Assembly: GCA_002099625.1 (NCBI GenBank)
Contig: GCA_002099625.1_4857.1
Reading direction: 5' to 3' (one strand)
DNA: 64,000 nt
Origin: Escherichia coli
Lineage (GTDB): Bacteria; Pseudomonadota; Gammaproteobacteria; Enterobacterales; Enterobacteriaceae
Shown: in pieces, positions 84 through 61,280 of the stretch
Position numbering within the stretch: the first letter of the stretch is position 1
How the letters are laid out: every line of letters starts with the position of its first letter
Notes under the pieces: generated by a model
What the model was told of the DNA's origin: nothing
The model's input: the letters and a program-made list of their open reading frames with translations, nothing else
Databases searched by the model: none
Position numbers and translations under genes: made by a program

Positions 84-104
84 CTTAGATAATATCTATC
101 TGCG
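84..104. promoter_or_regulatory. Copy 1 of recurring near-palindromic motif TAGATAATATCTATCT(G/C)AG
   Basis: tagataatatctatctg at 86-102; same core recurs at 22046, 53698 and 61262, always intergenic and 25-60 bp upstream of a gene start. Confidence 0.45.
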
Positions 105-118
105 AATATTTGGAATAC

Positions 119-160
119 AAAAAAAAAATAAAAGAGTTGTCCTCACTCCGAAGAGTGAGG
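119..160 (-). terminator. Rho-independent terminator
   Basis: Hairpin cctcactc-cgaa-gagtgagg (141-160) followed on the minus strand by a U-run (A-run 119-133 on plus); lies just downstream of CDS 253..1068. Confidence 0.5.
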
Positions 161-252
161 ACTTCCCTGGTGTTGGCATGTAAATCTACAAGGTCTTACA
201 AGGTCAGACGAGGGCTAATCGTCAGGAACATAGCTACTGGGCGTTAGCTAAT

Positions 253-1068
253 TCAGCGAAGGACGTCGGTAGTCTTACCGTGGGAGTTAACCACGTAAAC
301 TTCGTCGCCCTTATAAAACAATTCGTAAAGAGCACCGCTACTGATCTGGTTATCAGGATCGTGCCCAGATTCTTCTTCGATGCACATTGCGCCAATCAGT
401 TCATCGACTGAGCGGTCGCCTGGTCGCGCACCCTTCAAGACAGTAACGACAGATTCGCCATTTACCCATTGGGATTGTTCTTGTACATCGCAGAACTCCA
501 TGGTCGGCCCAGGTTCTAACTCGACCTGTTGCAGCTCAGCACGGGTATAAATGACTATATGTAAATCGCTATCTGGCGAAGGTTTTAAGTTAATGAGTTT
601 TTCAAGTGGTGTATAACCTCGTAGCTGCCGATTTACGGTAGCGATGTCTACAGTTACCGGTAACACCAAGATGGCAAACTCCGACAGGTCTCCGGCGATA
701 GCTCGGACGAAACTGTCTATATCTTTGTAAAAAACATAAACCCGGCCTGTGACGGAGTCAGGTAAAACAATATTTGGAAATATCGCCCGAAGGTATTCAT
801 ACCCGGCAGGTGCAGATGCTGCGAATCGAGTTTCAAAACTCAAGATGTCTGACGGCATACGCGTGTTCGGGTCGATTACATCAGGGGCAACGCGTTTTAA
901 CCCTGGATTAAGGGCTAACTTTTCATCGTCGAGAACTATATCGAAGCGCTCGTTCTCGAGCATTTTTAATGCCTCGCGGAATACACGAGACTTACGGTCA
1001 CCGATACGAACTTTTTCATGTTCGGTAATAATGCGGTCACCATCAATTACACGTTTAACTGTAAACAT
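253..1068 (-). CDS. Hypothetical protein (271 aa from MFTVKRVIDGD)
   Basis: ORF 253..1176 in track; AAGGAAAG ribosome-binding site sits 4 nt before the internal ATG at 1068, so the shorter start is preferred. Confidence 0.6.
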   Translation of the reverse strand: MFTVKRVIDGDRIITEHEKVRIGDRKSRVFREALKMLENERFDIVLDDEKLALNPGLKRVAPDVIDPNTRMPSDILSFETRFAASAPAGYEYLRAIFPNIVLPDSVTGRVYVFYKDIDSFVRAIAGDLSEFAILVLPVTVDIATVNRQLRGYTPLEKLINLKPSPDSDLHIVIYTRAELQQVELEPGPTMEFCDVQEQSQWVNGESVVTVLKGARPGDRSVDELIGAMCIEEESGHDPDNQISSGALYELFYKGDEVYVVNSHGKTTDVLR

Positions 1069-1229
1069 GTTGCTTTCCTTCTTACTACTATTGCTGCTTC
1101 TATTGGTAGTCCACGACATATCCCTCGTGGGTGGGTTCGGCGTGTAACCGAATAAGTTTTTCTGTTCCCAGGGCAACGCACCAGGCTTAAGTGATTTAGT
1201 TGGCTAACTAGGAACAGAAAAGGGAGAAC

Positions 1230-1440
1230 AAACCAGGGCGCGAGGTGGCTCTGGACGGATGCGTAAGAAAAACCCAAACGGCCCTGGTCTGTAATTTGGC
1301 CCGAAGTCACCGTGTCGGAGGACAGCCCATGCAGGTAGGCGGCAATGGACACGGTGACCGCGGAAGTGGTTCGTGTTATCCTTGACCCGTGTGTGGATAC
1401 GCGTCTTATTTCGAATGCCTTCGGGATAAGGATAACACAA
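1230..1440 (-). ncRNA. Candidate structured stable RNA downstream of the tRNA cluster
   Basis: No credible ORF; 11-bp inverted repeats gtcaccgtgtc/gacacggtgac (1306-1316/1348-1358) and gtgttatcctt/aaggataacac (1373-1383/1428-1438), plus ccagggc/gccctgg. Confidence 0.3.
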
Positions 1441-1442
1441 AT

Positions 1443-1518
1443 TGGCGACTCTGGCAGGATTTGAACCTGCGACATATGGATTAACAGTCCACCGTTCTAC
1501 CAGCTGAACTACAGAGTC
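1443..1518 (-). tRNA. tRNA-Asn (anticodon GTT)
   Basis: Reverse complement folds as a canonical cloverleaf: acceptor gactctg/cagagtc, D-arm gttc-agctggta-gaac, anticodon loop ctGTTaa, T-arm gcagg-ttcaaat-cctgc, encoded CCA. Confidence 0.85.
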
Positions 1519-1526
1519 TTAAAGAG

Positions 1527-1602: not shown

Positions 1603-1604
1603 TT

Positions 1605-5455: not shown

Positions 5456-5965
5456 TTAACACTTGATGGTATAGCCATCAAGGCCAAGGTGTACTGGTTT
5501 TATCCATAACCCTGGCTCCCCGAAAATATTCAGGTCGTAAGTTTGGTAATGCATGATCTTTGCAGGAACATGCACACCCATGCGTTGCAGAAATTCCCAG
5601 ACGGCGACGTAACGTTCACGAGTGATGAACATTAATCCGGAGTCGAACCCGGAACCGATGTCTAGGAAATTACCAAGAGAACTGTCAAAACTTGACACAC
5701 CATCTTGAGTAAGTGCGACCAACCCTTTAGTTAAATCTCTGTGGTTGTCAATGAAGTTACAGAGATCTACGATGGTTATTTGACCGTAAATACGACGGAG
5801 GACGGCAGCAACAGCCAAAATCTCGCTGGTATTTCCGTAGTCACCTAAAGGGTTATGGTCCATCATCGCAGTAATTATGCTTGTGTCGCAGAGGTCGATT
5901 AACCGCTGGTCGTGTACCACCAGGTTAAGACCTTGCCCCACCTGCACGGTTGGCGCAGTAAACAT
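5456..5965 (-). CDS. Hypothetical protein (169 aa)
   Basis: ORF 5456..6010; AAGGAG ribosome-binding site precedes ATG at 5965 (MFTAPTVQ), removing the overlap with the upstream gene. Confidence 0.6.
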   Translation of the reverse strand: MFTAPTVQVGQGLNLVVHDQRLIDLCDTSIITAMMDHNPLGDYGNTSEILAVAAVLRRIYGQITIVDLCNFIDNHRDLTKGLVALTQDGVSSFDSSLGNFLDIGSGFDSGLMFITRERYVAVWEFLQRMGVHVPAKIMHYQTYDLNIFGEPGLWIKPVHLGLDGYTIKC

Positions 5966-5975
5966 AGGAGGCTCC

Positions 5976-7109
5976 TTACGTTTTGACTGACTGTGAAGGT
6001 ACTCTGGCATCGTACATTAAAAAGATTTCCAGCAGACTCATACCCGTCGCGTAAAAGATTTGGTCTGTAATGACACTCACCAACGCTTCTGGGTCAATCG
6101 CGTCTACTGCAAAATCACTGTCGAACTGCCAGAACTCGACGTCATCCCCCTTTTCAAATGTCGCGGCATACAATCCAGGTTTCACACCACGCCGGAACGA
6201 AAAGAGTTTTGCGTCAGACTCAGTGTCCTTACCATAGATTTCCCCGTCGGTCCGTGTGATCGCTGCGCGTTTACACCGAGTTACCGTAAGGAGCGCACGG
6301 TTTGCAGATGCTTGCGATTTAAACGGATAGGGGCCATCGTATGTCGGGACATTCTGGTCGCCTAAGGCATCAAGTGCCTTACTCCGATAGACTACCGGAG
6401 ACTTAAAATTACACAGTCGATTCCCTTCGGTAAACATTGTGTATTCGACCTTAACGTCGGTACCGACGAGGTCAGCAGGGGACACTTTGTAGTGTGCTAA
6501 CTGTCCCTGCACGCGGCGAGAAAGCATCGATGCCAGGAAGGTATGGTTGCCCTGTGTACGCAAGACATAACCGAACTCTGTGCAGTCGACGATACGAGCG
6601 TCCATACGTCGTACAGGCTCCAGCCGGTAAGTCACATCATTCGCTTCGATAAGAAACTGACTGATGCTAACATCGCGAGATCGATGTTTGATTGCTTCAA
6701 ACACTTCACCCGCTTCCAGAATAGCTGGTTCAATTACATTGACCTGGAATGGGAGGGGTTTCGTCGGCCGTTGACCCATTGTTGTCACTGTCATCGAACG
6801 TAGCCACGGATCGTCCTCGCTAGGGTCATTGGAAAGCCAATGTGTTAACCAGCGAGAAAGGTTCTGAGGAATCGTTGCGGTTGAATATAAAATCACGGTA
6901 CCCATTATGCCTGCATCGGCCAGCAAGCGCGCGAGTACCGTGTTCATCGAATCGTATTTGCCATTTCGAAGAATAGGTAATCCTCCGACCTGGACCATTT
7001 CGCAGATGACGCCGTGTGGCAACACCCACATCTTCACTTGTTGGGCAGAATGTATCTGCCCAGTGCGCAGCTTTTCTTGCCACGCGTGCTTACGTTCAAA
7101 GTTCATCAT
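5976..7109 (-). CDS. Hypothetical protein (377 aa)
   Basis: Long ORF, tandem ATG start, co-directional with neighbours. Confidence 0.65.
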   Translation of the reverse strand: MMNFERKHAWQEKLRTGQIHSAQQVKMWVLPHGVICEMVQVGGLPILRNGKYDSMNTVLARLLADAGIMGTVILYSTATIPQNLSRWLTHWLSNDPSEDDPWLRSMTVTTMGQRPTKPLPFQVNVIEPAILEAGEVFEAIKHRSRDVSISQFLIEANDVTYRLEPVRRMDARIVDCTEFGYVLRTQGNHTFLASMLSRRVQGQLAHYKVSPADLVGTDVKVEYTMFTEGNRLCNFKSPVVYRSKALDALGDQNVPTYDGPYPFKSQASANRALLTVTRCKRAAITRTDGEIYGKDTESDAKLFSFRRGVKPGLYAATFEKGDDVEFWQFDSDFAVDAIDPEALVSVITDQIFYATGMSLLEIFLMYDARVPSQSVKT

Positions 7110-7181
7110 TGGGTAAAATCTCCTTCAGGTATACTCTCAGTATGATAACATATATCCGTAAATTTTTAGAGGTTTAGTGCC

Positions 7182-20440: not shown

Positions 20441-21112
20441 TTAATCGTGTGAAAGACGAGCTTCGAGGTCGTCGATAATGGTATCTGTGAAATAGCTAAT
20501 ATCTAGCTGCTCCACGAAATCCCTGCGTTCCAGAATGCGCTCTGCGAAGAGCGTACCGTACCAACTAGGGACATTACTAACACCGTTGCGTCCGAACTTC
20601 TGTTGGACGTGACCAACGGCATGGAATTTTGCATCGCCTTTACTTTTACCCTGTTCACGGGCAAACAGATAAGAACGGTGCATGTAATTGCTCACGTCAT
20701 CTACAGACGGTATACCACGGTCAGCTGCGGCAACTATCTCAGAGACAATCCCGTTGTAGTTCCCTTTGTGAGAACTGCGGTGTTCTAAGACTGCATGGGC
20801 AATCGTCAAACATTCATCATCGGTAAGTTTATACTTACGTTTGAGCACTGGCTTGTTATCCAGTATCCAGCTATACCCTTTGATGTGGTGCGACGCACGG
20901 TCTTCTTTGGTAGAGAAGATATCGTGAGCTGCCACCGCAATCAGTATCAGCTTCAGGTGTTCGGTTTGCCCAAGCATATACGCGATACGAATCGCATTTG
21001 ATTTAACTGAGTTGATGTGATCCATGCGATGCGCACTATCGGTATAACGATAGAAGTCGCGGAATTGACGAACCAGTTTTTCCCAAAGTTTGTTGAGTTC
21101 AGTGCCCTGCAT
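20441..21112 (-). CDS. HD-domain phosphohydrolase
   Basis: Motifs RMDHINSV ... LILIAVAAHDI ... HH match the H...HD metal-binding signature of HD phosphohydrolases. Confidence 0.6.
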   Translation of the reverse strand: MQGTELNKLWEKLVRQFRDFYRYTDSAHRMDHINSVKSNAIRIAYMLGQTEHLKLILIAVAAHDIFSTKEDRASHHIKGYSWILDNKPVLKRKYKLTDDECLTIAHAVLEHRSSHKGNYNGIVSEIVAAADRGIPSVDDVSNYMHRSYLFAREQGKSKGDAKFHAVGHVQQKFGRNGVSNVPSWYGTLFAERILERRDFVEQLDISYFTDTIIDDLEARLSHD

Positions 21113-21590: not shown

Positions 21591-21989
21591 TCAGATTAGC
21601 TGCTCAGCGCGCAAACGTCTCAAAGTGTTCGTTGCTGTAACAAGAACATCTTGCAGTTCTTGCATTGCTTTACCAACAAAGAACGGTTTAAGATGCAGGT
21701 CGCTAGTGATGAGTCCGCCGTATTTGTACGGTAGGTCTGTAATATCACAGACGATGGGATTTTTTGCTCGCCACTCTTCATCAGCAACGAGAATAAGAAA
21801 CTTCCAGGCGTCTTGATTGCCGAGCGATTCACCGGTTTCTGGCTTGTAGAGTTCTTTTAAACGTTTATCGCGCTCGGAGATAAGGTATTCGTCATCAGTC
21901 AACAGACGAATTAAATCGGCTTCGTTGCTCTCGGCTTTAGCACAAAGCATCATGGCAACAAACGGGTCTTGGCGTAGTTGGTTAGTCAT
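21591..21989 (-). CDS. Hypothetical protein (132 aa)
   Basis: ORF; GAAGGAG ribosome-binding site before ATG at 21989. Confidence 0.55.
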   Translation of the reverse strand: MTNQLRQDPFVAMMLCAKAESNEADLIRLLTDDEYLISERDKRLKELYKPETGESLGNQDAWKFLILVADEEWRAKNPIVCDITDLPYKYGGLITSDLHLKPFFVGKAMQELQDVLVTATNTLRRLRAEQLI

Positions 21990-22008: not shown

Positions 22009-22022
22009 TAATGGTCGATTAA
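22009..22022 (-). promoter_or_regulatory. Leader motif TTAATCGACCATTA, copy 2
   Basis: Minus-strand leader ttaatcgaccattacccagaaggagtatttaca-ATG, 20 nt upstream of the ATG at 21989. Confidence 0.4.
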
Positions 22023-22045
22023 AGCGTTAACGTGTAACGCTCACC

Positions 22046-22064
22046 TAAGTAATATATATCTCAG
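22046..22064. promoter_or_regulatory. Copy 2 of recurring near-palindromic motif (taagtaatatatatctcag)
   Basis: Intergenic, about 55 bp upstream of the minus-strand gene start at 21989. Confidence 0.45.
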
Positions 22065-22135
22065 TTCTTTTTGAATGCAATTAATAAAATAAAAAGACTC
22101 ACCCGTATCCGAAGATAGGATGAGCCTAGTGGAGC

Positions 22136-22684
22136 TTAGACTTGCAGTAGTGTCCCCGAGTGACTAATCGGGTCATTGTAGAACGCTTCACACTGGAGGC
22201 AAATGCCATCAATGTTCGGTTCTTCAGTTCGCGACCATATCGCCGCACCACCTTGCAAAATCCATTCTCGACAGTTACGACCATAATCGTCGACAAGCAA
22301 ATTACCTCGCGAGGCGTAAGCTTTCTTCTGCCCTGAACTTTCGGTGACGATGACTTTGTCAGCTGGTACCCCAAAGTGCTTCATGAACCACCGTTGTTTT
22401 GAATCCACAACCAATTGGTGGTCGTAGTGATCTTCTGACCCAGAGGTGAGTATTGCCCAACTGTCGCAAAGTCTATCTACCGTTTCCAGGATTCGCTCTA
22501 CACCCTCAATTGGTTCGAGTTTGTAAAACAAGTCAGGATCGTTCTGATACATCGAACGAACCAAACTACGACGACGGAGTTCAGGTAATGCGTTAAACTC
22601 TTTAATCGTCATTCCGGGAAAATGTGTGGATAAAACGTATTTACGCCAGCGTGCAAAAACGCCATCGCTATCCAGATAAAACAT
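22136..22684 (-). CDS. HAD-superfamily 5'-nucleotidase-like protein (182 aa)
   Basis: ORF 22136..22729; AAGGA ribosome-binding site before ATG at 22684; N-terminal MFYLDSDGVF is HAD motif I (DxDG). Confidence 0.55.
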   Translation of the reverse strand: MFYLDSDGVFARWRKYVLSTHFPGMTIKEFNALPELRRRSLVRSMYQNDPDLFYKLEPIEGVERILETVDRLCDSWAILTSGSEDHYDHQLVVDSKQRWFMKHFGVPADKVIVTESSGQKKAYASRGNLLVDDYGRNCREWILQGGAAIWSRTEEPNIDGICLQCEAFYNDPISHSGTLLQV

Positions 22685-22737
22685 TTTCTTGTCCTTATTT
22701 TGTTCCCCAACACATGAAACCAACGTCATGTAAAAAA

Positions 22738-24592: not shown

Positions 24593-25321
24593 TTACCTCA
24601 TATACAAATCCTCGAGTGGCTCTGCACGTACCGGATCGACCTGGAGTGCAGAACGGATACCCTGTTTCAGTTCCACATCTGCAATCTTGGCCAACCGGGA
24701 AGTTTTGTTCAATGAACCTGAACGCAGCGGAATAAACTGCACCCGATTCATCAAATCGCTGTCTTTTTTCAGGGTGTAGCGGAAATACGTCCGCGGGTCG
24801 CCAACCTTACGCTGTGTGTGGGCAGCATAACAGTCAGCGGTGATCTGGTCGTTAAAGACCGTAAAGCCGTTCCACGTCTTAGTGTCAGACAATAGCTCAG
24901 CGTCATCTACTGCGGTGTACCAGAAAGGCCGGTTTCCGAAGTCGTAGATGTACGAAGCGATGTTGTAGACTGGCGAGGAGAGCACTTGCAGCATTCGGTT
25001 GGGGAACACCACCGTGCCGGGGTCAAAACGGAACTCGTAATACGGCACACCCTGAACATCAATTTCCTCAAACGCCGACGGGGTAATTTCAATGAACGTC
25101 GTGACGTTCGATACCCCGTAGGTTTTGCGGTCAGTGGAGATAGCGAAAATGCCGACGATTTCGACTTGCGAAGAAATTACCGCCAGCTCTTTAGCCACGA
25201 AGCCAACAGGGATGTAAATGTAACATCCCCCTTTGGTGATGGTGGCCGTGCCTTGGTCCACTAAATCTGCATGAATTTTCGTCGCGTCACGACGTGCTGT
25301 TTCAATGGCGCTCACGACCAC
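24593..25321 (-). CDS. Hypothetical protein (242 aa)
   Basis: ORF in same block. Confidence 0.6.
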   Translation of the reverse strand: MVVSAIETARRDATKIHADLVDQGTATITKGGCYIYIPVGFVAKELAVISSQVEIVGIFAISTDRKTYGVSNVTTFIEITPSAFEEIDVQGVPYYEFRFDPGTVVFPNRMLQVLSSPVYNIASYIYDFGNRPFWYTAVDDAELLSDTKTWNGFTVFNDQITADCYAAHTQRKVGDPRTYFRYTLKKDSDLMNRVQFIPLRSGSLNKTSRLAKIADVELKQGIRSALQVDPVRAEPLEDLYMR

Positions 25322-31367: not shown

Positions 31368-32981
31368 TCATTTCAACAGCGCAGCAGTCGTTCTTTTAAT
31401 CACGTTGTTAACCGGATTGATTTTGAAACTGCCGTCTGTTGCAAACCAGTAGTTTTTCGAACTGACCCACTTCCGATTTTCCTCGAGCGCTTCGGTTGAC
31501 ATCGGGCAGTTTGCTGAGCCGGTGTCACCATCGTAGTCACCACCCAAGCCCCCTAATCGGGATGGGTGTGGTGCCATGGATTCCACAAAGGTTTTCACGG
31601 TACGGTCAGGGAAACTAATTGCACCCTTCTCTTTTAACGTGACCCAATCGTCTTCCAGTTCATGCAAATAGAGGGAAGAAGTGGTGGTCTCCAATCTTAT
31701 GGTCGAGGAGTAAGTCGAACCGCGTCCCGTAACCGGATAACGCGTGATGAACGAGAAGTAGTCATTCCAAATATCGTAACCTGACAAATAGAGGAGTTCC
31801 GCTAAGCTCAGTCCGCGGACAAGCTTACGGTCACGTCCTTCCGGCAGGTCTTCAATATCGTAAAAGATTTTGAAGCTGCGTTTGTCCTGGTAGATTAATG
31901 CCACGTAATGGTCCGGATCAATCATCAGCGGTTTATGTCGAAGCTCGCGCGCTTCCATTCTGTTGATGAGTGTTTCGATGCCATCGTCGGTAGTGAAAAG
32001 GTCATACACCCGCCCGGAGACTTCCAGGAACTCACGCTTGAGTGTTTTGGTGTTAACGCCGTATAAGTTGCCGTCCCCTGCCCGGATGTTACTGAGGTAA
32101 CGTTCACGGATGTGGTATTGAGCCACAGGCAGTAATGCCTTCAGGGTTTGGTACAAACCGATACGGGTATCCGTTGGACGAATCGCATCTTCGCGACCCA
32201 TGACCTTGGAACCGGTTGAGAATGAAGACAGTACGTTACGCGTACCGTTCATTAACTTACGTGACGTCACTTTACGACGTGCAAAACCACCTTTACCGTC
32301 TTGGATGTTGAAGAAGTACATCCAGATATCATTAAAGGTTTGTTGGAGCTTCCAGCGAACCGGGTCAGTCAGTTCCGTTCGCGTACTGCGGTCGGGGATT
32401 GCACGTGCCAGAGAAATCAGACGGCGGTAGAGTCCGCCAATCTCTTCTTCTTGGTCGCGGCCATCCTGACGAATGACCAAATCACGTAATCCCGCAGGCA
32501 GAACCAGCACATAGCGGCTGAGACTGACCGGACGGAACTTATTGAAGAAATCGACTGTCTCGTCGCGACGCATCGATTCGTTGCGTCCCGGTGTCAGTTG
32601 TTCGTAGTAGCGTAGGAAGAAGTTGAAGCCGGTGTCTGCACCTTTATCACTGGGCAGAGCCGGCTCGAAGTCTTTTTCTTTCTCATTCCAGATAGCGAAT
32701 CGCTTCCCGGAACAGATTTCTTCGTACAGCTGTTTCAGCTGGAACAATGCCAAACAAACGGTCGGCGAAATGATATCCAGTTTGATATCAATGTACGAGA
32801 ACGTTGAGTCTCGTGCTTCGCTCCCTGTGAGGCCAAAAATTTCGGTTGAATACAGTCCTTCAGGGTGAAAGTTTTTCGTCAGTCCCTGAAAGGTGTCTGT
32901 TGTTGTAACTGGTTTTAAATGCGACACCAGGGACTTGTTGACGTTTAACAAGTAAAAGTCAACCCAGTTTAGCTTTCTCAC
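31368..32981 (-). CDS. Multisubunit RNA polymerase beta-prime N-terminal-like subunit (537 aa)
   Basis: GGDYDGDTG about 465 residues in, matching the position of the beta-prime catalytic NADFDGD motif; N-terminal PEGLYSTEIFG resembles beta-prime RDGLFCARIFGP; GTG start with AGGAG ribosome-binding site. Confidence 0.6.
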   Translation of the reverse strand: MRKLNWVDFYLLNVNKSLVSHLKPVTTTDTFQGLTKNFHPEGLYSTEIFGLTGSEARDSTFSYIDIKLDIISPTVCLALFQLKQLYEEICSGKRFAIWNEKEKDFEPALPSDKGADTGFNFFLRYYEQLTPGRNESMRRDETVDFFNKFRPVSLSRYVLVLPAGLRDLVIRQDGRDQEEEIGGLYRRLISLARAIPDRSTRTELTDPVRWKLQQTFNDIWMYFFNIQDGKGGFARRKVTSRKLMNGTRNVLSSFSTGSKVMGREDAIRPTDTRIGLYQTLKALLPVAQYHIRERYLSNIRAGDGNLYGVNTKTLKREFLEVSGRVYDLFTTDDGIETLINRMEARELRHKPLMIDPDHYVALIYQDKRSFKIFYDIEDLPEGRDRKLVRGLSLAELLYLSGYDIWNDYFSFITRYPVTGRGSTYSSTIRLETTTSSLYLHELEDDWVTLKEKGAISFPDRTVKTFVESMAPHPSRLGGLGGDYDGDTGSANCPMSTEALEENRKWVSSKNYWFATDGSFKINPVNNVIKRTTAALLK

Positions 32982-49418: not shown

Positions 49419-49453
49419 TAAAAAATAAAGATACCCTCTCCCGAAGGAGAGGG
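49419..49453 (-). terminator. Rho-independent terminator
   Basis: Hairpin ccctctcc-cgaa-ggagaggg (49434-49453) followed on the minus strand by a U-run; downstream of CDS 49460..50122. Confidence 0.55.
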
Positions 49454-49459
49454 CACGAC

Positions 49460-50122
49460 TTAGATGCGGGTTTCATTATCCCAGTAGTTCCGAATGACTT
49501 CCTGGGCTTCAGCATCCGACGGGTTGCCTGGAATAGCGTCTTCTACTGCAAACGGCAATACGTCCTTGATAGACGTCAGCTCAAATCGCTCAACTTCCAG
49601 TTCGACTTTTACCCACTCGCCGAATGTAGTGGAGTCGCGCAGTTCGTTGACAAGGTCTTCGAAACCTGCCTGCGATTCGATAACTGGGTGACCTGCCAGT
49701 TTAAAGAACAAGTCGATATCCCAATGCTTCGCACCTTGCTCTGCCAGTTCACCTGGTTCGAGTTTGATACGACGCACGAGATGTGCAAGATTGCCATCTT
49801 CGTAGAAGGTCAGACCCGAGGCAAACCCGATATCCGAGTTCTCTTCGATACGACCATCAGATGCTTGTCGTTTTAACGTTAAGACTGCGGTTTTATCGGT
49901 GGACAACCGCACACGACGTTTGCCGTTAACGACCGGCATGATGACATCCAGGAACGTTTCACCTGTCTGACCAAACAGCCATTGCCAACCTTCTTCAGTG
50001 GGTTTAACCCACATGCAATACTCACGTTCCTTCTCCGTAGAGATGGACTCACGCGCAACAGTAATGACTTCTTTTTCCTGCTGCTCGTCTAAGTTTTTGA
50101 GAATATCAAATAGTCCCATCAT
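49460..50122 (-). CDS. Hypothetical protein (220 aa)
   Basis: ORF in block. Confidence 0.6.
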   Translation of the reverse strand: MMGLFDILKNLDEQQEKEVITVARESISTEKEREYCMWVKPTEEGWQWLFGQTGETFLDVIMPVVNGKRRVRLSTDKTAVLTLKRQASDGRIEENSDIGFASGLTFYEDGNLAHLVRRIKLEPGELAEQGAKHWDIDLFFKLAGHPVIESQAGFEDLVNELRDSTTFGEWVKVELEVERFELTSIKDVLPFAVEDAIPGNPSDAEAQEVIRNYWDNETRI

Positions 50123-53133: not shown

Positions 53134-53664
53134 TTAGAGATAGTGTTCCACTATCACTTCTAACTCGCGGAAGATATGTGCGGTTTGATTAAACAGCGTA
53201 TCCTGTTCGGGTGTTTGTTTATCAAATGCACGCTGATACAGTTCTAACATAGCGAAGACTGTGCGCAGTTTATCGCGCGCGACTTCAGGATCGGATGCAC
53301 CGAAATAATGATCAAGCCATCGTGGTTCTGAACTCTCTCCTTTTCTATCGATTGCCTCAGGCAACTCTAACCAACGTTGATTGGGAATGTTGCTACTGGA
53401 TACACGGTTATACTCAGAAATGAAGAATTCCAATCGCTCCACCAACGTGTCAAAATCTCGAATACGTAATTCGAGTTGTCCACGCAATGAAAAAGGAAGG
53501 TATTCTTTCCCATTATATTCCAGAGGCTCTGTAATGAGTTCTAAGCCCACCATCACTCTGTGCAGGGTGTTATGGGTATTCTTATGAAACTCAGCCTCCA
53601 AAGAGCGTCTGCGAGCTTCTATAGCCTTACGACGCAGGAGTGTTGAAAGCCATTTAAAAAGCAT
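53134..53664 (-). CDS. Hypothetical protein (176 aa)
   Basis: ORF; recurring motif lies about 33 bp upstream of its start. Confidence 0.55.
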   Translation of the reverse strand: MLFKWLSTLLRRKAIEARRRSLEAEFHKNTHNTLHRVMVGLELITEPLEYNGKEYLPFSLRGQLELRIRDFDTLVERLEFFISEYNRVSSSNIPNQRWLELPEAIDRKGESSEPRWLDHYFGASDPEVARDKLRTVFAMLELYQRAFDKQTPEQDTLFNQTAHIFRELEVIVEHYL

Positions 53665-53697
53665 AGGTGTTATCCTATTATGAGATGTTGTCTCGGA

Positions 53698-53716
53698 TAG
53701 ATAATATCTGTCTGAG
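53698..53716. promoter_or_regulatory. Copy 3 of recurring near-palindromic motif (tagataatatctgtctgag)
   Basis: In a 76-bp divergent intergenic region between the minus gene start at 53664 and the plus gene start at 53741. Confidence 0.5.
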
Positions 53717-53740
53717 TTCTTTTTGAGATGAGGTTATCCC

Positions 53741-54211
53741 ATGAGCGAAGAAGTGAAATACCAAGCGTTCGACGGAGATGTGGACAACGAAGATTCGCTT
53801 CTCCGCCAAACACAACAGCTACGCGTTAAGCTCGTCACGGATATGGTGAACGACGGTGAAGTACACAAAGACTTAAAAGCCGTCGACCGAATCGAACGCC
53901 TAATCAACGGCATCGACAAACAGGTCATGACGAAGCGGAAAATTAAAGCTGCTGAGAAAGGCGCTGAGGCGACTCAAGATTTGGCCAACAGTTTAAACGG
54001 CTTCTTAATGACCCGTGCAGGCGTTGGTATCAAACGTCACGACGATGAAGAAGATTTAAATAACGGATACCAACCCACCGTCCCACAGATTGCCGCAGTA
54101 CGGCCTCCGAAAGAAGGTGAGTTGGCACCAGTAGGCGAAAAGATTGACGTTGACCAGATCATGGCGTCTGCGTTTGCGAGTCGTCGTCCTGCTGATGACG
54201 ACGAAGACTAA
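53741..54211 (+). CDS. Hypothetical acidic protein (156 aa, C-terminal DDDED)
   Basis: GAGG ribosome-binding site; the only plus-strand gene in this region; 3' end overlaps the convergent gene by about 50 nt. Confidence 0.55.
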   Translation: MSEEVKYQAFDGDVDNEDSLLRQTQQLRVKLVTDMVNDGEVHKDLKAVDRIERLINGIDKQVMTKRKIKAAEKGAEATQDLANSLNGFLMTRAGVGIKRHDDEEDLNNGYQPTVPQIAAVRPPKEGELAPVGEKIDVDQIMASAFASRRPADDDED

Positions 54212-54887
54212 ACAGAGCAGTGTCCTTTACGTCAGTACCGACGTATTGAGCAAGAAAACGGGTGGACTCCTTAAAGGGGTTCACCTTATCTCTTTTTATT
54301 TGCGCGATTGCTTCTTCCGTCAATTCGCTGGTCAGCATACTCGGTCGGGTAATGGTGAAATCCGGAATCGGTTTCTGGAAATGGCCCGCGTGTTGTTCTA
54401 TCCACGGGTACCAGTCGTACATTATCCAACCGTCCCACGCCGAAGCAAGTCGTCCTGGTGTAAGATCGCTGTGAGGAATAACAACGACGTCTACTTGCAC
54501 TTCGTTGTAGTAGTAGCGAAGTTCTTCCAAAAACGCATGACGTTCTTCATCATCGAGATCGGCGTATGGCCACAGGTTAAACGTTAAGACAGGTCGCTCG
54601 ATAGGAGCGTGCATCTGTATCGTCATTAACATTGCCTGTACTTCGTTCTTTAGCGTAAGCAACATTTCTGTTGGCTGCGCGTTCTGCAACGCGCGTTTAT
54701 CACGCTCCGCGAACTTTTTATTCCAGTCCTGAATTCCTACCACTTCGGCCCACGCATCCGTGAACCGCATCCGATACACTTCTAAATCAAGCTTCTCTAA
54801 TACATCAGGCTGCAGCACTTTCGCCCAACCAATTCGTGTATCGAAGATTGTGTCGATATCGACTAAGAAACGGCGTCCTAATCTCAT
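54159..54887 (-). CDS. Hypothetical protein (242 aa)
   Basis: ORF in block. Confidence 0.55.
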   Translation of the reverse strand: MRLGRRFLVDIDTIFDTRIGWAKVLQPDVLEKLDLEVYRMRFTDAWAEVVGIQDWNKKFAERDKRALQNAQPTEMLLTLKNEVQAMLMTIQMHAPIERPVLTFNLWPYADLDDEERHAFLEELRYYYNEVQVDVVVIPHSDLTPGRLASAWDGWIMYDWYPWIEQHAGHFQKPIPDFTITRPSMLTSELTEEAIAQIKRDKVNPFKESTRFLAQYVGTDVKDTALFSLRRHQQDDDSQTQTP

Positions 54888-55552
54888 TCCGGGCGTCCTA
54901 AGTTGTTACCGATGTGCATTGCTTTAAAGTACGAAGACCATGTACGCGGCGCTTTTGAACTGGTACGCTCAGCCCCTTCCAGGTTGATGCGACCTTTACC
55001 GGTTTGCCGTAGCGATTGATAGAACGCACGTTGTAACGTATCGTTACCACCACGCGCCCACAGGAACTCCTGGAGCGTTGAGTCGTGTCCATCCGAGTAC
55101 ATGATGTACGCTTCTGGAAACGAAACACCCGAGGCTTTGGAAGGCCCTACTACCTGACCTGAGAGTTTATCGCGGACTTTATCGTTCTTCGCCACCGCCA
55201 TTTTCTTCTCTTGCATCTGCGTCTGGCGACGTGCAGGTAGCCGGAAGACTAAATGGGGGTAACGGGTACGCTGTAGGATACCGGTTTTCGGTTCCGTGAG
55301 CCACAGGCGCTGACACAAGTTCAGTCCCATCGCTTCGCAAATTTTAATATTGCGCATATGGTCAATTTTGACCTTGCCGCCAGTTGGGTTGTAAACAGGC
55401 AACCCTTCGCGCAGACGATTGAACTCTTCGTCAGACATTCGTGAGAAAGCGCGCTTGGCAGCTTCCGCGTTAATCCCGGTCGGGTCAACTAAGTTCAGTA
55501 ACTGTAAAGCATAAGCTTCTGCTTTTTTTCGCCGTGCCGGGTCTAATCTCAT
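54884..55552 (-). CDS. Hypothetical basic protein (222 aa)
   Basis: ORF in block; 4-nt overlaps on both sides. Confidence 0.55.
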   Translation of the reverse strand: MRLDPARRKKAEAYALQLLNLVDPTGINAEAAKRAFSRMSDEEFNRLREGLPVYNPTGGKVKIDHMRNIKICEAMGLNLCQRLWLTEPKTGILQRTRYPHLVFRLPARRQTQMQEKKMAVAKNDKVRDKLSGQVVGPSKASGVSFPEAYIMYSDGHDSTLQEFLWARGGNDTLQRAFYQSLRQTGKGRINLEGAERTSSKAPRTWSSYFKAMHIGNNLGRPE

Positions 55553-57776: not shown

Positions 57777-58532
57777 ATGAATGTTAATCCACTTGCAGCG
57801 TTGTCGGGCTTTGTTGCCAAAGCATCCACGATTCTGCCTAAAGCCTTTAGCGGCTCTCAACAGGAACTCGCGCTGACCACCTATGACGACATGTCTGATG
57901 TGTCCAAGTGGATGCAGCAAGAGAAGTTTTTAAACTTTACCGGAATGCTTGTACCCGTACCACCGGGCTTCAACACGTATGTGATGGACCACATAGAACG
58001 GTTGGAATCTGTATGGGCTGTGCTCCAGAAGATTCAGGAAGGGGTTTTAAGTCCCATCGACAAACGTTTCGGCGCGATGACACACGACCTGGGCATGTTA
58101 ACTCTGCCGATTGGGTTTAAGTTCAAAGACCTGAACTATCCACTGAAAAACATCAATCCGAAAGACCTGGTTGAAAAACTGGCGAAGTCGTACACCAACA
58201 ATGTGATCGACCAGCGTGCGATTGAAAAGACCTACCACAGTGCAGGTGAGATTGACGTTGCGTTTAATCGTGCCAAAGCGCTGAACCTGGAAGTGACTAA
58301 GAAACTCCAGAAAGGTATTGACCGTACAGTTGAAAGCATCAACGTCTCTGTAGACATTATCTCTAATTCACAAGTCCATCCTAATGTGGCGGCAGAGTTA
58401 GTGAAAATGGCTGACATGGGTGCTGACTGGGTTGAGCTGTTCGGACTGTTTATGAAACAGATTAATGAACTGACAGAATGCCTGAACGTAACCGGTGATC
58501 GCCTCAAGACCCTGAAAGCAAACAAAAAATAA
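57777..58532 (+). CDS. Hypothetical protein (251 aa)
   Basis: GAGG ribosome-binding site; ends at a strong terminator. Confidence 0.6.
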   Translation: MNVNPLAALSGFVAKASTILPKAFSGSQQELALTTYDDMSDVSKWMQQEKFLNFTGMLVPVPPGFNTYVMDHIERLESVWAVLQKIQEGVLSPIDKRFGAMTHDLGMLTLPIGFKFKDLNYPLKNINPKDLVEKLAKSYTNNVIDQRAIEKTYHSAGEIDVAFNRAKALNLEVTKKLQKGIDRTVESINVSVDIISNSQVHPNVAAELVKMADMGADWVELFGLFMKQINELTECLNVTGDRLKTLKANKK

Positions 58533-58594: not shown

Positions 58595-59137
58595 TTAGAA
58601 TTTACTGATAGCAAGAGGCTGCATTGGCTCGACCACAATCAGTATTTCTTTCAGACGTGAAACGATATGCTCCCAGACCTGTGCTTCGAGGTGACGTAGC
58701 ATGGTGGTGAACTCACCCATGTACATCTCTTTATACTCGTCGCGGTTGAGATGTTCCCACGCTTCTTTCAATGGGCCTGCTTCCGGTCCAGACATCTTAA
58801 TCATCATTTCGATGTCCTTCATTTCATCAAACGCTTTACCGACCTTATCAATAACCTCATCGGTCTTGAGTTCGAGTGAGAAGCGACCCATCTTAGACTG
58901 CAGGAAGCCGTCTTCAATGTCTTCGTCGTTGTATTCGAAACACGCAATACGTTGCGCGAGTTGATGAACTTCATTTACCGCGATATTGACGTACGCCGCA
59001 GAGATAAGTCCAGCGAGGTGTTGACGATCGATATTCTTCGGTATCAGATAGTCTTCACACTTACGCTTAAACTCGAACAACGCCGCTGGAAATATTTCAC
59101 GAAATTCGTCATCGAGTAAATCAATGAATATTTTCAT
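58595..59137 (-). CDS. Hypothetical protein (180 aa)
   Basis: ATGA start/stop overlap with the upstream gene. Confidence 0.55.
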   Translation of the reverse strand: MKIFIDLLDDEFREIFPAALFEFKRKCEDYLIPKNIDRQHLAGLISAAYVNIAVNEVHQLAQRIACFEYNDEDIEDGFLQSKMGRFSLELKTDEVIDKVGKAFDEMKDIEMMIKMSGPEAGPLKEAWEHLNRDEYKEMYMGEFTTMLRHLEAQVWEHIVSRLKEILIVVEPMQPLAISKF

Positions 59138-59673
59138 TCAACAGGTTTCCCATATTTCTCGCCGAGATACAGCAGTTCGCGACGACAGATAGCCAGCACC
59201 TTCATCTCCGCCTCACGATACAGCTTGGTGATTTTGTCAATGATTGGCTGGTCAACGATATCGGACCATGTTACCGTATCCGTAACGTTCGACGTTTGCC
59301 CGTTAATGACCACAGCAACATATGTCTCGCCCAGGTTCTCTTGATGTAACCCCGCCAGAGATTCACCAACCTTATCAAAGGCTTCACTCAATAAGTCGGT
59401 GATTTGGTCCGTCCCTTCTACCAGTTCAAAACGATGGGGATAGTTCAGAATGTTACGCAGCCGCGTGAACATACGTTCAATAAGCTGATTTACCATATCC
59501 CCAGTGTCACAGATAGCCACATCTACACCCGAACCTATTTCGTCAGACAAACGATTTTCGTGGACGGCCAACGCATCGTGAAGTTCAAATTCCACGTCTC
59601 GTTTTAATCCTAACAGAATTTCATCTAGCTGACGTCTCGACTCCGACAGAGCGAAGTCAATTACGATTTGCAT
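59134..59673 (-). CDS. Hypothetical protein (179 aa)
   Basis: AAGGAG ribosome-binding site before ATG at 59673. Confidence 0.6.
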   Translation of the reverse strand: MQIVIDFALSESRRQLDEILLGLKRDVEFELHDALAVHENRLSDEIGSGVDVAICDTGDMVNQLIERMFTRLRNILNYPHRFELVEGTDQITDLLSEAFDKVGESLAGLHQENLGETYVAVVINGQTSNVTDTVTWSDIVDQPIIDKITKLYREAEMKVLAICRRELLYLGEKYGKPVE

Positions 59674-59683
59674 CTAATGCTCC

Positions 59684-60091
59684 TTAAAAGTTACTTACCT
59701 CGGGCTGCGTATACCAGTATCTGCACGCTACGAGATCCACAACGTTATATTTCAGTTGTCCACCGTGCTGTGACGTGTCTGCCAATTCATGCGCAAGCTT
59801 GTACGCCAAGTCTTCACGGTTGTCGAGGATAAGCAACACAACACGCTGCACCTCATTAAAGATATCCGGTTCACGTAAACAACTGTAGCGCTCGCTAAGA
59901 TGCTTAATAACGCCTTTATAAACATCTCCTGGTACAGCAGTGCCATTTTCTGCTACGTGGAATGAAACAAGCACGATTTTAATTAAAATCTCGACAACCA
60001 TGGAGTATATCATTCCACGGTTGCCGTTAATTTCCACATGCTTTAGATACTCTTGCAAGTCCATCAATGACTCGCTATACACCTTTAACAT
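59684..60091 (-). CDS. Hypothetical protein (135 aa from MLKVYSESL)
   Basis: ORF 59684..60157; GAGGTGG ribosome-binding site precedes ATG at 60091, removing the overlap with the upstream gene. Confidence 0.55.
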   Translation of the reverse strand: MLKVYSESLMDLQEYLKHVEINGNRGMIYSMVVEILIKIVLVSFHVAENGTAVPGDVYKGVIKHLSERYSCLREPDIFNEVQRVVLLILDNREDLAYKLAHELADTSQHGGQLKYNVVDLVACRYWYTQPEVSNF

Positions 60092-60102
60092 AGCGACCAC
60101 CT

Positions 60103-60480
60103 CTAGTTGGTTGCCGGCCACACCCCTGGCGATGGGATTGCATCGTATCCACGCCATTTCTTAATCACGACAAGGTTCGAGCCTGGAAGACCATCTAAAT
60201 CAAAACCAACAGTAGCAACGACATCAACTTCAGCATCCAGCGATACCTGATCGCGACCCTGTGTTCTGAAATGTGCAAGAGACACCAGTTTACCGCCAGT
60301 AATCGCAGTATCGCGAATAAGACGTGCCATATTGCGCATCTCTACTGTCACTTCTCCACGAATAGCGACACTCAGCGTTGCTTTATTTAACCAGGCTTCT
60401 TGTCCCGGTTCGACAATATAGAGAATCACACCTTCTTTGTAATACTGTTTTACCATCGTTTCAAATTCGTCTTGCGTCAT
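60103..60480 (-). CDS. Hypothetical protein (125 aa)
   Basis: ORF in block. Confidence 0.55.
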   Translation of the reverse strand: MTQDEFETMVKQYYKEGVILYIVEPGQEAWLNKATLSVAIRGEVTVEMRNMARLIRDTAITGGKLVSLAHFRTQGRDQVSLDAEVDVVATVGFDLDGLPGSNLVVIKKWRGYDAIPSPGVWPATN

Positions 60481-60493
60481 TTTAAATACTCCT

Positions 60494-61228
60494 TCAGTAG
60501 TTTAGTTTCTCAGCGACTTCTTTACGGATGCGACACATCACCACCATCGCACCATTCGGAATTTGGCTCACGCAGTTATCCGTGTAAAACTTACCTCCAC
60601 ACAGATAAAAGTCCAGACACATGGCATCGGTCAGCTCGTGCCACAGGGTGCCGAAACCATACTGCCAAGGACCGGAATGAATGACATCGTAATCGCCTTC
60701 AGTTATGCCAAATGCGGCAGTAGCGGAAGACCACAATGTTGAGGAGGTGGTATAAGTGTCATACCAGTAACCGAGCAGACGATGGTTACGACGTATCTCA
60801 GCTAACCGCTCGTACATTGGGATGAATACATCTTCCACCTGCGTGACAAAATCAGCCAGCATCAACTTTTCCGTGAACCACTCGATCCACGCAAAGATTT
60901 GTTCTTCAACGTCTTGTTGGCTTAACCCCGTGGCAGTAATGCCTTCTTCGTAGGTGTAACCTTCGTAGACGTCAACAACATTAATCTCTACATGTTCTAG
61001 CGTGAACAACCGTTCGGTGTTGATGCAGTCGTACATCTCTTGTAACCACGCAGTGAAGACTTCTATACAGACGTTGATGGCTGTGTACTTGAATTCATCG
61101 CGCAGTGGATACCACTGTGGGTTATCCTTTAGTTCGTTCTTCGCGAACGCGGGCCAATGCTTTTCGAACAACGCTTCAAAGAACTGGGGCGTGAGGTTTA
61201 AAAGCACTGGCACTTCGACTTTAAGCAT
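60494..61228 (-). CDS. Hypothetical protein (244 aa)
   Basis: AAGGAG upstream of ATG at 61228; recurring motif about 35 bp upstream. Confidence 0.6.
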   Translation of the reverse strand: MLKVEVPVLLNLTPQFFEALFEKHWPAFAKNELKDNPQWYPLRDEFKYTAINVCIEVFTAWLQEMYDCINTERLFTLEHVEINVVDVYEGYTYEEGITATGLSQQDVEEQIFAWIEWFTEKLMLADFVTQVEDVFIPMYERLAEIRRNHRLLGYWYDTYTTSSTLWSSATAAFGITEGDYDVIHSGPWQYGFGTLWHELTDAMCLDFYLCGGKFYTDNCVSQIPNGAMVVMCRIRKEVAEKLNY

Positions 61229-61261
61229 CGTGAATAAATTCTCCTTAAGGTTACGTCCCTG

Positions 61262-61280
61262 TAGATAATATCTATCTCAG
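61262..61280. promoter_or_regulatory. Copy 4 of recurring near-palindromic motif (tagataatatctatctcag)
   Basis: Intergenic between minus-strand genes, upstream of the start at 61228. Confidence 0.5.

Follow-up and report, generated by a model that had tools for sequence, protein, structure and literature searches.

A conserved AT-rich motif upstream of genes in an SPN3US-like jumbo phage matches early promoters of phiKZ-type phages

The window, i.e. the whole stretch of 64,000 nucleotides that was analysed, is part of an SPN3US-like jumbo Salmonella phage (Seoulvirus, Chimalliviridae; phiKZ-related), as it is 97–99% identical to the Salmonella phages 1252, SPFM and SPN3US. Two multisubunit RNA polymerases are encoded by this phage, that of the virion and a non-virion one. 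The virion polymerase is encoded by five genes (gp240, gp241, gp218, gp42 and gp244), and gp244 (24593..25321), gp241 (27144..31349), gp240 (31368..32981) and gp218 (54884..55552) are located in the window. For the non-virion polymerase, homologues of five phiKZ subunits (PHIKZ055, 068, 071, 074 and 123) were identified.

In the initial annotation, a near-palindromic 19-nt motif was described at four positions upstream of minus-strand genes. A search of the window with this pattern, in which up to 3 mismatches were allowed, located all of them, namely at 86-104 (site 1, 1 mismatch), 22046-22064 (site 2, 3 mismatches, TAAGTAATATATATCTCAG), 53698-53716 (site 3, no mismatch) and 61262-61280 (site 4, no mismatch). 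The coordinates of three sites had been given correctly, whereas site 1 had been placed at 86-102 and has to be extended to 86-104. Shuffled sequences yielded a mean of 0.04 matches, and six matches were reached in none of 100 shuffles. Two additional matches on the minus strand are echoes of sites 1 and 3 that result from their palindromic sequence. By means of a weight-matrix scan a fifth site was detected at 7142-7160 (site 5, minus strand), which precedes the minus-strand ORF 5976..7109 by 32 nt; its score of 42 compares with at most 14.9 among 20 shuffled windows. All five sites are intergenic, lie on the minus strand and are found 32–58 nt 5' of minus-strand start codons. The distances from motif end to ATG (58, 56, 33 and 33 nt for the sites at 86, 22046, 53698 and 61262) agree with the intergenic position 25-60 bp from a start codon that had been reported, and the common orientation with minus-strand genes was likewise found for all four of these sites.

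Two architectures can be distinguished. At sites 5, 3 and 4 (7142, 53698 and 61262) a short leader of about 30 nt precedes the ATG, while sites 1 and 2 (86 and 22046) belong to a long-leader cassette of about 90 nt, in which the motif is followed by a stem-loop (7–9 bp) at the predicted 5' end, a AATCGACYATTA box and the Shine-Dalgarno sequence. Site 1 (81..116, minus strand, core 86-104, score 51.8) has its predicted start at G 82, and its target gene (ATG at 27-25, minus strand) extends past the left edge of the window. The stem-loop behind it (63..81, minus strand; 7 bp stem, 5-nt loop; -9.0 kcal/mol, z -2.37) keeps its pairing in the orthologue of the Erwinia phage phiEaH2 (Erskinevirus), and a degenerate leader box ACTCGACTATAA is present at 40-51. 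About 35 nt upstream of site 1, an intrinsic terminator with a T-run (139..162, minus strand; -22 kcal/mol, z -4.69) follows ORF 253..1176. Site 2 (22041..22076, minus strand, core 22046-22064, predicted start 22042, score 51.4) is organised in the same order of terminator, motif and leader. Here, the terminator (22095..22127, minus strand; -18.3 kcal/mol, z -4.71, T-run) follows ORF 22136..22729 about 30 nt upstream of the site, the stem-loop (22022..22042, minus strand; 8 bp stem, 5-nt loop; -8.1 kcal/mol, z -2.88) also pairs in the phiEaH2 orthologue despite a different stem sequence, and the leader box AATCGACCATTA (22009..22020, minus strand) lies 19 nt 5' of the ATG, before the Shine-Dalgarno sequence of ORF 21591..21989. 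The unit downstream of site 2 comprises the ORFs from 21591..21989 to about 19125. Orthologues of site 1 are located at SPN3US 4424 and phiEaH2 170861, those of site 2 at SPN3US 223274 and phiEaH2 148031.

Among the short-leader sites, sites 5 and 3 are situated in divergent intergenic regions. Site 5 (7137..7172, minus strand, core 7142-7160, predicted start 7138, score 42.4) precedes the ORFs 5976..7109 and 5456..6010 and has orthologues at SPN3US 238178 and phiEaH2 162331. Site 3 (53693..53728, minus strand, core 53698-53716, predicted start 53694, score 42.3) precedes a unit of five genes from ORF 53134..53664 down to ORF 49460..50122, which is probably ended by the strong intrinsic terminator at 49431..49456 (minus strand); equivalent unit ends were found at 5423-5448 for site 5 and at 19095-19120 for site 2. 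The site 3 block is invariant in five phages, although the downstream protein is only 43–59% identical and the adjoining leader varies; in a sixth phage, with 42% identity of the downstream protein, the motif is changed and still recognisable. Site 4 (61257..61292, minus strand, core 61262-61280, predicted start 61258, score 43.1) adjoins the stop codon of ORF 61282..62082 and has no upstream terminator. Its unit consists of the ORFs 60494..61228 to 58595..59137, and orthologous sites occur in L008, L009 and L012.

The motif search was also applied to complete genomes, as the initial annotation had proposed. In SPN3US, 23 sites were detected, all of them on the strand of the next gene. No site precedes any of the 33 genes on the opposite strand, and none was found in the structural block at 115–161 kb of this genome. 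Fully intergenic positions accounted for 21 of the 23 sites, compared to an intergenic share of 6.36% of the genome (binomial P 1.6e-23). An equal frequency of the motif inside genes, which had been named as an argument against a promoter, was thus not observed. The other two SPN3US sites touch coding sequence, and one of them (25223) lies within the gene of the PHIKZ068 homologue. The genome of phiEaH2 was left out of matrix building and is therefore an independent one; it contains 22 sites, all on the same strand and nearly all at orthologous positions, including orthologues of all five sites of the window.

The genes behind the sites include those of the non-virion RNA polymerase, for which each of the five subunit homologues is the first or second gene after a motif site. 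This does not apply to any of the five genes of the virion polymerase. In this respect the SPN3US-like phage, in which every non-virion polymerase gene has an adjoining upstream site, differs from phage 201phi2-1, where some of these genes have no early promoter nearby, so that the argument does not hold for the whole family. Across genera, the early promoter set and its link to every non-virion polymerase gene are conserved in position.

On the gene strand, the consensus consists of an A-rich tract followed by yTsAGAyAkATATTAyCTw..GTGAg. The conserved element exceeds the 19 nt originally described, since an A located 6 nt 5' of the 19-mer, inside the A-rich tract, is present in 45 of 45 sites, and a G four bases 3' of the 19-mer, which is the second G of GTG (G23), is invariant as well. 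Within the 19-mer, A10, T11, T13 and A15 are found in all 45 sites, and A at -5 and T at 0 occur in 38 and 37 of them, respectively. If transcription started at G23, A(-6), A(-5) and T0 would correspond to about -29, -28 and -23. The 45 sites share an AT-rich core with TATATTAC-like sequence and conserved A/T positions near -20 and -30, as in the early promoters of phiKZ-type phages. Site 2 contains the exact TATATTAC, and the other sites of the window differ from it at 2 of 8 positions; the TATATTAC-type subclass and the ATATTATC type are both present within one genome.

In phiKZ and 201phi2-1, mapped early promoters possess a TATATTAC core about 10 bp before the start and T/A-rich positions near -20 and -30. 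The sites described here resemble them in the AT-rich core with ATATTA, in the conserved positions near -20 and -30, in the presence of genes for both polymerases and in downstream genes that are mostly of unknown function; the GTG at the start region also occurs in the 201phi2-1 consensus. Start sites were measured in those phages, whereas they are predicted from the sequence in SPN3US-like phages. The sequence is almost that of the early-promoter consensus TTTCARRYAKATATTATYWAAGTG predicted for Pseudomonas phage OBP and Klebsiella phage N1M2 (PMC7058600, Table 2, citing Cornelissen et al. 2012). Measured against the 33 positions of the OBP consensus, the SPN3US sites show a median of 4 differences, and random positions a median of 20 and a minimum of 8. 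The upstream A/T tract, the RRYAKATATTATYW core and the downstream GTG are shared, and the copy numbers per genome are similar (31 in N1M2, 23 in SPN3US, 22 in phiEaH2). The OBP and N1M2 motifs, which are themselves bioinformatic predictions, belong to phages of other hosts and genera, and their upstream TTTC corresponds to yTsAG in the SPN3US-like sites.

The motif is therefore very probably an early-class promoter of the SPN3US-like phage, and the virion RNA polymerase that is injected is its most likely reader. The initial suggestion of a phage promoter similar to phiKZ early elements is supported by the relationship of the phage to phiKZ with its two multisubunit polymerases, the consensus match, the intergenic and co-oriented location, the conserved positions across genera and the placement of the non-virion polymerase genes. 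In all phages with mapped transcripts (phiKZ, 201phi2-1 and AR9), AT-rich motifs of this kind, with their centre near -10, are early promoters, and these have been attributed to the virion polymerase. Promoter activity is inferred here, and the start, its early timing and the polymerase involved are deduced from these other genera; a search of the accessible literature for 5' ends, time courses or rifampicin effects in SPN3US-like phages found none. As a later report of a virion polymerase recognising this motif class in vitro was not found in the literature either, the assignment to this enzyme is made by analogy. By homology with phiKZ-type phages, the core ATATTA would lie around -13 to -8 and conserved A/T positions would fall near -23 and -29, and transcription would start at or next to the invariant G (82, 7138, 22042, 53694 and 61258, minus strand). 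The multisubunit virion polymerase (gp240, gp241, gp218, gp42 and gp244), injected together with the DNA, would be the likeliest reader. It would turn on units of 2–6 genes, most of them uncharacterised. In other parts of the genome, it would also turn on every subunit of the non-virion polymerase, which would then take over.

Other readings of the motif have to be weighed against this one. Host polymerase acts right after injection in T4, and the core of the motif could serve as the -10 element of a sigma-70 early promoter, as it holds TATATT or TATTAT (4–5 of 6 matches to TATAAT) and the upstream A-rich tract could resemble an UP element. However, a conserved -35 element is absent (at most sites, the best match reaches only 2–3 of 6), a TG extension is missing as well, and the invariant positions A(-6), A10, T11, T13, A15 and G23 extend well past the sigma-70 contacts. 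When a TTGACA-like hexamer 16–18 nt 5' of a TATAAT-like hexamer was demanded, none of the five window sites and none of the 23 SPN3US sites scored in gene orientation, and such sigma-70-like sites are rarer in the window than expected (41 versus about 64). In addition, phiKZ, whose early promoters have the same core, develops without host RNA polymerase. A host promoter is hence improbable, and some use of the motif by the host polymerase may occur, given its -10-like core. It is very unlikely that the motif is instead a middle-class signal of the non-virion polymerase. Some phiKZ genes do have both early and middle promoters, but all five non-virion subunit genes follow the motif directly, and for this reason their product cannot be the first to read it. 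Moreover, the middle (TACT near -22) and late (TATG at the start) motifs of phiKZ differ from the present one, while the early motif matches.

The dyad symmetry of the motif had also led to the suggestion of an operator for a dimeric regulator of phage or host. The 13-nt palindrome TAGATATTATCTA is present at three sites of the window, with more symmetric bases in the flanks, and on the plus strand the whole element of site 3 folds into a hairpin of 11 pairs. Perfect palindromes occur in only 4 of 45 sites, though, and in the TATATTAC class two positions depart from the symmetry with no compensating change. Neither of the invariant bases A(-6) and G23 has a mirror partner, the invariant central T13 is always violated on the reverse strand, and every one of the 45 sites points in the direction of the gene behind it, the orientation never being reversed. 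The suggestion could not be upheld; an operator as the function of the motif has very little probability and the symmetry is incidental, although an operator could overlap a subset of the sites. Least credible of all is a repeated recombination or mobile cassette that has no promoter function of its own. The long-leader copies of about 90 nt, which are 67–81% identical to each other and precede unrelated genes, do recall the cassettes of T4-type phages. Yet the positions of the sites are conserved and not variable between genera, and mobility alone leaves the strict spacing to the start codon, the shared orientation with the genes and the agreement with promoters mapped in relatives unexplained; besides, a mobile cassette is compatible with promoter function and no alternative to it. 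A promoter as used by the N4-type virion RNA polymerase, which recognises a DNA hairpin upstream of the start, was also considered and rejected, as the stem-loops lie at or after the predicted start, are present at only 18 of 45 sites, and the polymerase is multisubunit and not N4-like.

Beside the early promoter itself, the stem-loop of the long-leader subclass deserves attention. A stem of 6 bp or more with no interruption, starting no more than 5 nt away from position 22 of the motif (next to the predicted start G at position 23), was found at these 18 sites, and the arm sequences differ among all of them. In seven hairpins of the same register, 94.6% of the cells are paired in comparison to 72% in shuffles, and 0 of 500 shuffles reached the observed value, a statistic which is inflated by the choice of hairpins folding in the same register. 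Double changes were found in 5 of 8 pairs. In E. coli, 5'-terminal stem-loops such as that of the ompA leader reportedly stabilise mRNAs (Emory, Bouvet and Belasco 1992). The phage leaders are similar in that the stem-loop has 0–2 unpaired bases at the predicted 5' end and in that the sequence is free while the pairing is kept; they differ in that both the 5' end and the function of the stem-loop are only predicted. Composite motifs of early promoter and stem-loop are known as PeSL cassettes from T4-type phages (PMC2839356, PMC4122927). These, too, are short conserved cassettes in which a stem-loop and an early promoter are joined, and they are repeated before unrelated, mostly uncharacterised genes. 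In contrast, PeSL promoters use the host sigma-70 polymerase and mark hyperplastic regions of gene shuffling, whereas the SPN3US-like sites are of the phiKZ early type and conserved in position between genera, and the covarying stem-loop, where present, is located in the transcript leader.

In the papers on phiKZ and 201phi2-1 that were consulted, no mention of a subclass with a 5'-terminal stem-loop was found, and the stem-loop with compensatory changes at the predicted 5' end is possibly the one new feature. Tentatively, and with some doubt, the conserved cassette of about 90 nt, in which about 40% of these promoters are placed, may be regarded as an undescribed RNA signal that is specific to early mRNAs in nucleus-forming jumbo phages, composed of a stem-loop, whose sequence changes from locus to locus and between genera while the pairing is maintained, and the AATCGACYATTA box ahead of the ribosome-binding site. 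Most plausibly, the stem-loop would shield the 5' end of the early mRNA from 5'-end-dependent decay, and it might guard this end against host RNases. More speculatively, it might label the transcripts of the injected polymerase so that they leave the early infection vesicle or are translated preferentially.

The motif is the same kind of signal as the described early promoters of phiKZ-type phages, a real and largely expected finding by which the current understanding is not overturned. For SPN3US-like phages, it provides a complete and testable map of the early regulon with five promoters in the window, 23 genome-wide and a predicted start for each. Amber mutants of the virion polymerase are available for SPN3US, which makes this phage the genetically tractable model of the phiKZ group. 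The promoters of this motif would represent compact parts that are orthogonal to host transcription, and the stem-loop subclass offers a lead on how early mRNAs of jumbo phages may be stabilised or handled.

A search with the pattern of the 19-nt near-palindromic motif (19-mer), allowing up to three mismatches, matched the window at all four sites reported by the initial annotation, namely 86-104, 22046-22064, 53698-53716 and 61262-61280 (sites 1 to 4; shuffle mean 0.04). The first of these had been given as 86-102, its correct span being 86-104, and site 22046 deviates at three positions from the consensus as originally written. An alignment of these four in gene orientation (minus strand) shows an A-rich tract followed by CTGAGATAGATATTATCTA and (a)GTGAG, and the reported placement just upstream of start codons was borne out, with the ATG 33-58 nt past the 19-mer. 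A weight matrix revealed a fifth, overlooked site at 7142-7160 (site 5, minus strand), 32 nt ahead of ORF 5976..7109. The five sites scored 42-52, in comparison to a maximum of 14.9 in shuffled windows.

Strong intrinsic terminators at 139-162 and 22095-22127 precede sites 1 and 2, respectively, by about 30-35 nt. According to the probable transcription units, which were derived from terminator scans, site 2 would drive about six genes including that of an HD-domain protein (probable end at terminator 19095-19120), site 3 five genes (terminator 49431-49456), site 4 five genes (convergent gene 57777..58532) and site 5 two genes (terminator 5423-5448), while the unit of site 1 runs past the window edge. 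None of the promoter-proximal first genes was assigned to a Pfam family, and their PHROGs are all of unknown function; the early genes of phage 201phi2-1 are likewise described as of unknown function. On the opposite (plus) strand of site 3, at 53692-53716, the palindrome and the A-tract form an 11-pair hairpin followed by TTCTTTTT, which scored as terminator-like and lies 25 nt ahead of the divergent gene 53741..54211.

Two queries, a 7.1-kb ORF and an intergenic segment of 600 bp, showed 97-99.8% identity to the Salmonella phages 1252, SPFM, SPLA and SPN3US, and the window thus derives from an SPN3US-like jumbo phage (Seoulvirus); Erwinia jumbo phages matched the same queries at 60-80%. Judged from its sequence, the phage is a phiKZ-related Seoulvirus with two multisubunit polymerases, the injected virion RNA polymerase (vRNAP) and a second, non-virion polymerase (nvRNAP). 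The window contains four of the five vRNAP genes (gp241, 27144..31349; gp240, 31368..32981; gp244, 24593..25321; gp218, 54884..55552). The window and SPN3US run in opposite directions, the minus strand of the former being the plus strand of the latter, and window position x maps to about 245315 minus the SPN3US position.

Further features were observed in the window. On the minus strand, tRNA-Asn (1443-1518) and tRNA-Trp (3019-3094) are encoded, and two adjoining weaker tRNA-like matches (1529-1600 and 1603-1672, minus strand) were barely above the Rfam threshold and not called by ARAGORN. About 850-1000 bp between 4400 and 5450 are devoid of a long ORF. Beyond a terminator and a long T-run, GC-rich CGCGTGCG-type repeats lie on either side of a block that is about 95 nt long and extremely rich in A and T (4660-4755). 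This block holds the inverted repeat AATATAATAATACC ttt AGGTATTATATT and the best sigma-70-like matches of the window (4727-4756, minus strand). The coordinate mapping puts both ends of the linear GenBank record of SPN3US close to window position 4900, and the region is a candidate origin, packaging region or terminus. In the scans for sigma-70 promoters and terminators, which covered 1-40000 and 44001-64000, sigma-70-like matches were below shuffle level three times (7 vs 20.6, 14 vs 18.7 and 20 vs 25.1), and terminator-like hairpins exceeded the shuffles (44001-64000, 36 vs 18.5; 1-20000, 32 vs 19.3). This combination fits a phage that is independent of the host polymerase and rich in intrinsic terminators.

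The initial annotation had named a motif equally frequent in coding DNA of the complete genome as a refutation of the promoter proposal, and this was not observed. In SPN3US (NC_027402, assembled from five annotated stretches for the scan), the weight matrix identified 23 sites, whose scores are clearly separated from the background. Of these, 21 are fully intergenic in a genome of which intergenic DNA makes up only 6.36% (binomial P 1.6e-23), and the next gene lies on the motif strand in all 23 cases. No site precedes any of the 33 opposite-strand genes, and sites are absent from the structural block at 115-161 kb. The Erwinia phage phiEaH2, which belongs to another genus and was left out of matrix construction, possesses 22 sites, all on a single strand and nearly all orthologous in position to SPN3US sites, including the five window sites. 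Tandem pairs are kept in both genera (SPN3US 15611/15704 and 72483/72681; phiEaH2 182310/182401 and 241269/242221). The protein encoded downstream of site 3 shares only 42-59% identity with its counterparts in six relatives, yet the block aaaaagaaCTCAGACAGATATTATCT is invariant in the five relatives with 43-59%; in the sixth (42%) it is diverged, still recognisable, and the adjoining leader diverges in all six. A related-locus search with the site 2 gene and nvRNAP gp34 returned only SPN3US and one close relative, and an exact 15-mer scan of IMG/VR gave more than 120 matches, mostly by chance, in unrelated contigs.

The tandem copies in SPN3US are spaced 93-198 nt apart, and both pairs precede units with nvRNAP subunits; downstream of 72483, a Shine-Dalgarno sequence and an ATG may start an unannotated small ORF. 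A strong motif copy (score 37) at SPN3US 25223-25241, inside the coding sequence of gp30 and 264 nt ahead of the next gene, is possibly an internal promoter. In phiEaH2, RefSeq annotates one plus-strand ORF (gp142) at 115984-116877, where SPN3US and four other relatives have a conserved divergent pair with the promoter in between. phiEaH2 also retains ATGAGCGAAGAAGT, the conserved start on the reverse strand, and the single-ORF call is probably a mis-annotation.

Early-promoter consensuses, predicted or mapped, have been published for phiKZ-related phages (PMC7058600): TBYAWWWWWTTTCARRYAKATATTATYWAAGTGWA for N1M2, BSHAWWWWWTTTYARRYAKATATTATYWWADTG for OBP, ...BTATATTACDWHDGTG for 201phi2-1 and TATATTAC for phiKZ. 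Measured against the 33 positions of the OBP consensus, the SPN3US sites show a median of 4 differences and random genome positions (n=5000) a median of 20 and a minimum of 8. Site 22046 includes an exact TATATTAC. Over 45 sites of SPN3US and phiEaH2, A at -6 of the 19-mer, A10, T11, T13, A15 and G23 are invariant. The transcript start is predicted at G23, four bases past the 19-mer, on the model of the 201phi2-1 motif, whose terminal GTG coincides with the start region. The core would then span about -13 to -8, and the upstream A's would sit near -29. A 2020 review (PMC7598289) states that AT-rich motifs of about 10 nt with their centre near -10 are detectable in all jumbo phages that encode an RNAP, that they turned out to be early promoters in every phage with transcript profiles, and that the vRNAP must be the enzyme recognising them. 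Mapping in phiKZ and 201phi2-1 is in line with the review, the core being placed some 10 bp ahead of the start and further conserved regions at -20 and -30. The proposal of a promoter is thus supported by conservation across genera, intergenic position, co-orientation and kinship to phiKZ-type early promoters, and the comparison supports assignment of the motif to this known class. Promoter activity, start site, timing and the polymerase used are inferred by analogy with relatives.

All five nvRNAP subunits of phiKZ (solved structure PDB 7OGP) have SPN3US homologues, each encoded by the first or second gene after a site: gp23 (PHIKZ055) is the second gene behind the tandem sites 15611/15704, gp30 (PHIKZ068) lies 60 nt after site 23807, gp34 and gp35 (PHIKZ071 and PHIKZ074) lie 29 nt after site 28966, and gp77 (PHIKZ123) is the second gene behind site 72681. 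No such placement is seen for any of the five vRNAP genes. The reader of the motif must therefore exist before the nvRNAP is made. Recognition by the nvRNAP itself, as a middle-class promoter, is in practice excluded, since every subunit gene of this enzyme stands behind the motif and an earlier enzyme is required; the motif is also unlike the middle and late motifs of phiKZ. A host sigma-70 promoter is improbable on sequence grounds: the sigma-70 rule in gene orientation was passed by none of the five window sites and none of the 23 SPN3US sites, a conserved -35 element and a TG extension are absent, and the conserved positions reach well past the -10 hexamer.

The dyad symmetry had also been read as an operator for a dimeric regulator, which is not supported. 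Perfect 13-nt palindromes occur at only 4 of the 45 sites, the TATATTAC subclass breaks the symmetry without compensation, no symmetric counterpart exists for the invariant A(-6) or G23, and the orientation is never reversed. Bidirectional firing of the palindromic core at five divergent gene pairs was likewise rejected as unsupported. The reverse reading always breaks an invariant position because the centre T13 is invariant, reverse scores reached at most 19 (forward, 20-54), and palindromy is not specific to divergent regions.

Within the early-promoter class, two site architectures were distinguished. At short-leader sites (window 7142, 53698 and 61262) the ATG follows about 30 nt past the 19-mer. 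Long-leader sites (window 86 and 22046) carry TTCAGATATATATTACyTAGGTGAG or a closely similar sequence, and the ATG lies 53-58 nt past the 19-mer. The transcript predicted for them opens with a stem-loop of 7-9 bp, after which come a AATCGACYATTA box and the Shine-Dalgarno sequence. The stem-loops of sites 86 and 22046 have folding energies of -9.0 kcal/mol (z -2.4) and -8.1 kcal/mol (z -2.9). In a search anchored at the motif and compared with shuffles, 18 of the 45 sites showed an uninterrupted stem of at least 6 bp beginning at most 5 nt from motif position 22; about 14 of the 18 individually reached P <= ~0.02 (less than one expected). The arm sequences differ in all 18, and at orthologous sites the pairing is kept with different sequences, as for window 22046 (GAGCGTTA/TAACGCTT) and its phiEaH2 orthologue (GAGATTA/TAATCTT). 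Seven same-register hairpins, a gapless subset selected for folding and thus a more biased measure than the anchored 45-site search, pair in 94.6% of cells vs 72% in shuffles (0/500 reach the observed value) and in 37-50% when the partners are slid; both-sided changes were found in 5 of 8 pairs. RNAalifold predicted no pairs on a MAFFT alignment of 15 leaders, because loop lengths differ and the 3' arms are out of register.

The resulting cassettes span about 90 nt and share 67-81% identity among themselves, and the genes behind them are unrelated. T4-type PeSL cassettes have a similar layout but probably differ in polymerase and mobility. The classic safeguard of E. coli mRNA against 5'-end-dependent decay is a stem-loop that leaves almost no 5' base unpaired, as in the ompA leader. 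We favour the reading that the leader stem-loop would shield early mRNA from such decay. In SPN3US, the leader after site 165684 (165703-165782) contains a 5' stem-loop and then a terminator-like hairpin (GGCTACCTTCGGGTAGCC and a T-run) before the gene, which suggests an attenuator or a source of short leader-derived RNA; 5'UTR-derived small RNAs were reported for 201phi2-1.

As a separate promoter the AATCGACYATTA box was rejected, its window count with up to two mismatches being at chance (8 found, 9 expected); only the exact copies in leaders are meaningful. Exact copies without the promoter motif occur at window 21130-21141 (minus strand), upstream of ORF 20441..21112 for the HD-domain protein, and at SPN3US 57146, 167592 and 224197, each 17-19 nt upstream of an ATG and just ahead of the Shine-Dalgarno sequence. 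The box may be an extended translation-initiation signal.

A literature string search for the motif yielded unrelated primers only, and the 2020 review (PMC7598289) credits Lavysh et al. 2016 with the location of such motifs in every RNAP-encoding jumbo phage; the present account is probably not the first description of the motif even for SPN3US. No literature report of a 5' stem-loop in phiKZ-type phages was found, and of all the parts only the stem-loop cassette may be novel. The initial observation holds and is extended here, and the element belongs to a known class, for which reason its interest is modest. SPN3US fits the scheme of phiKZ, which leads from the injected vRNAP via early genes, including those of the nvRNAP, to the middle and late genes: the injected vRNAP would read the motif and thereby switch on the early genes, the nvRNAP genes among them.
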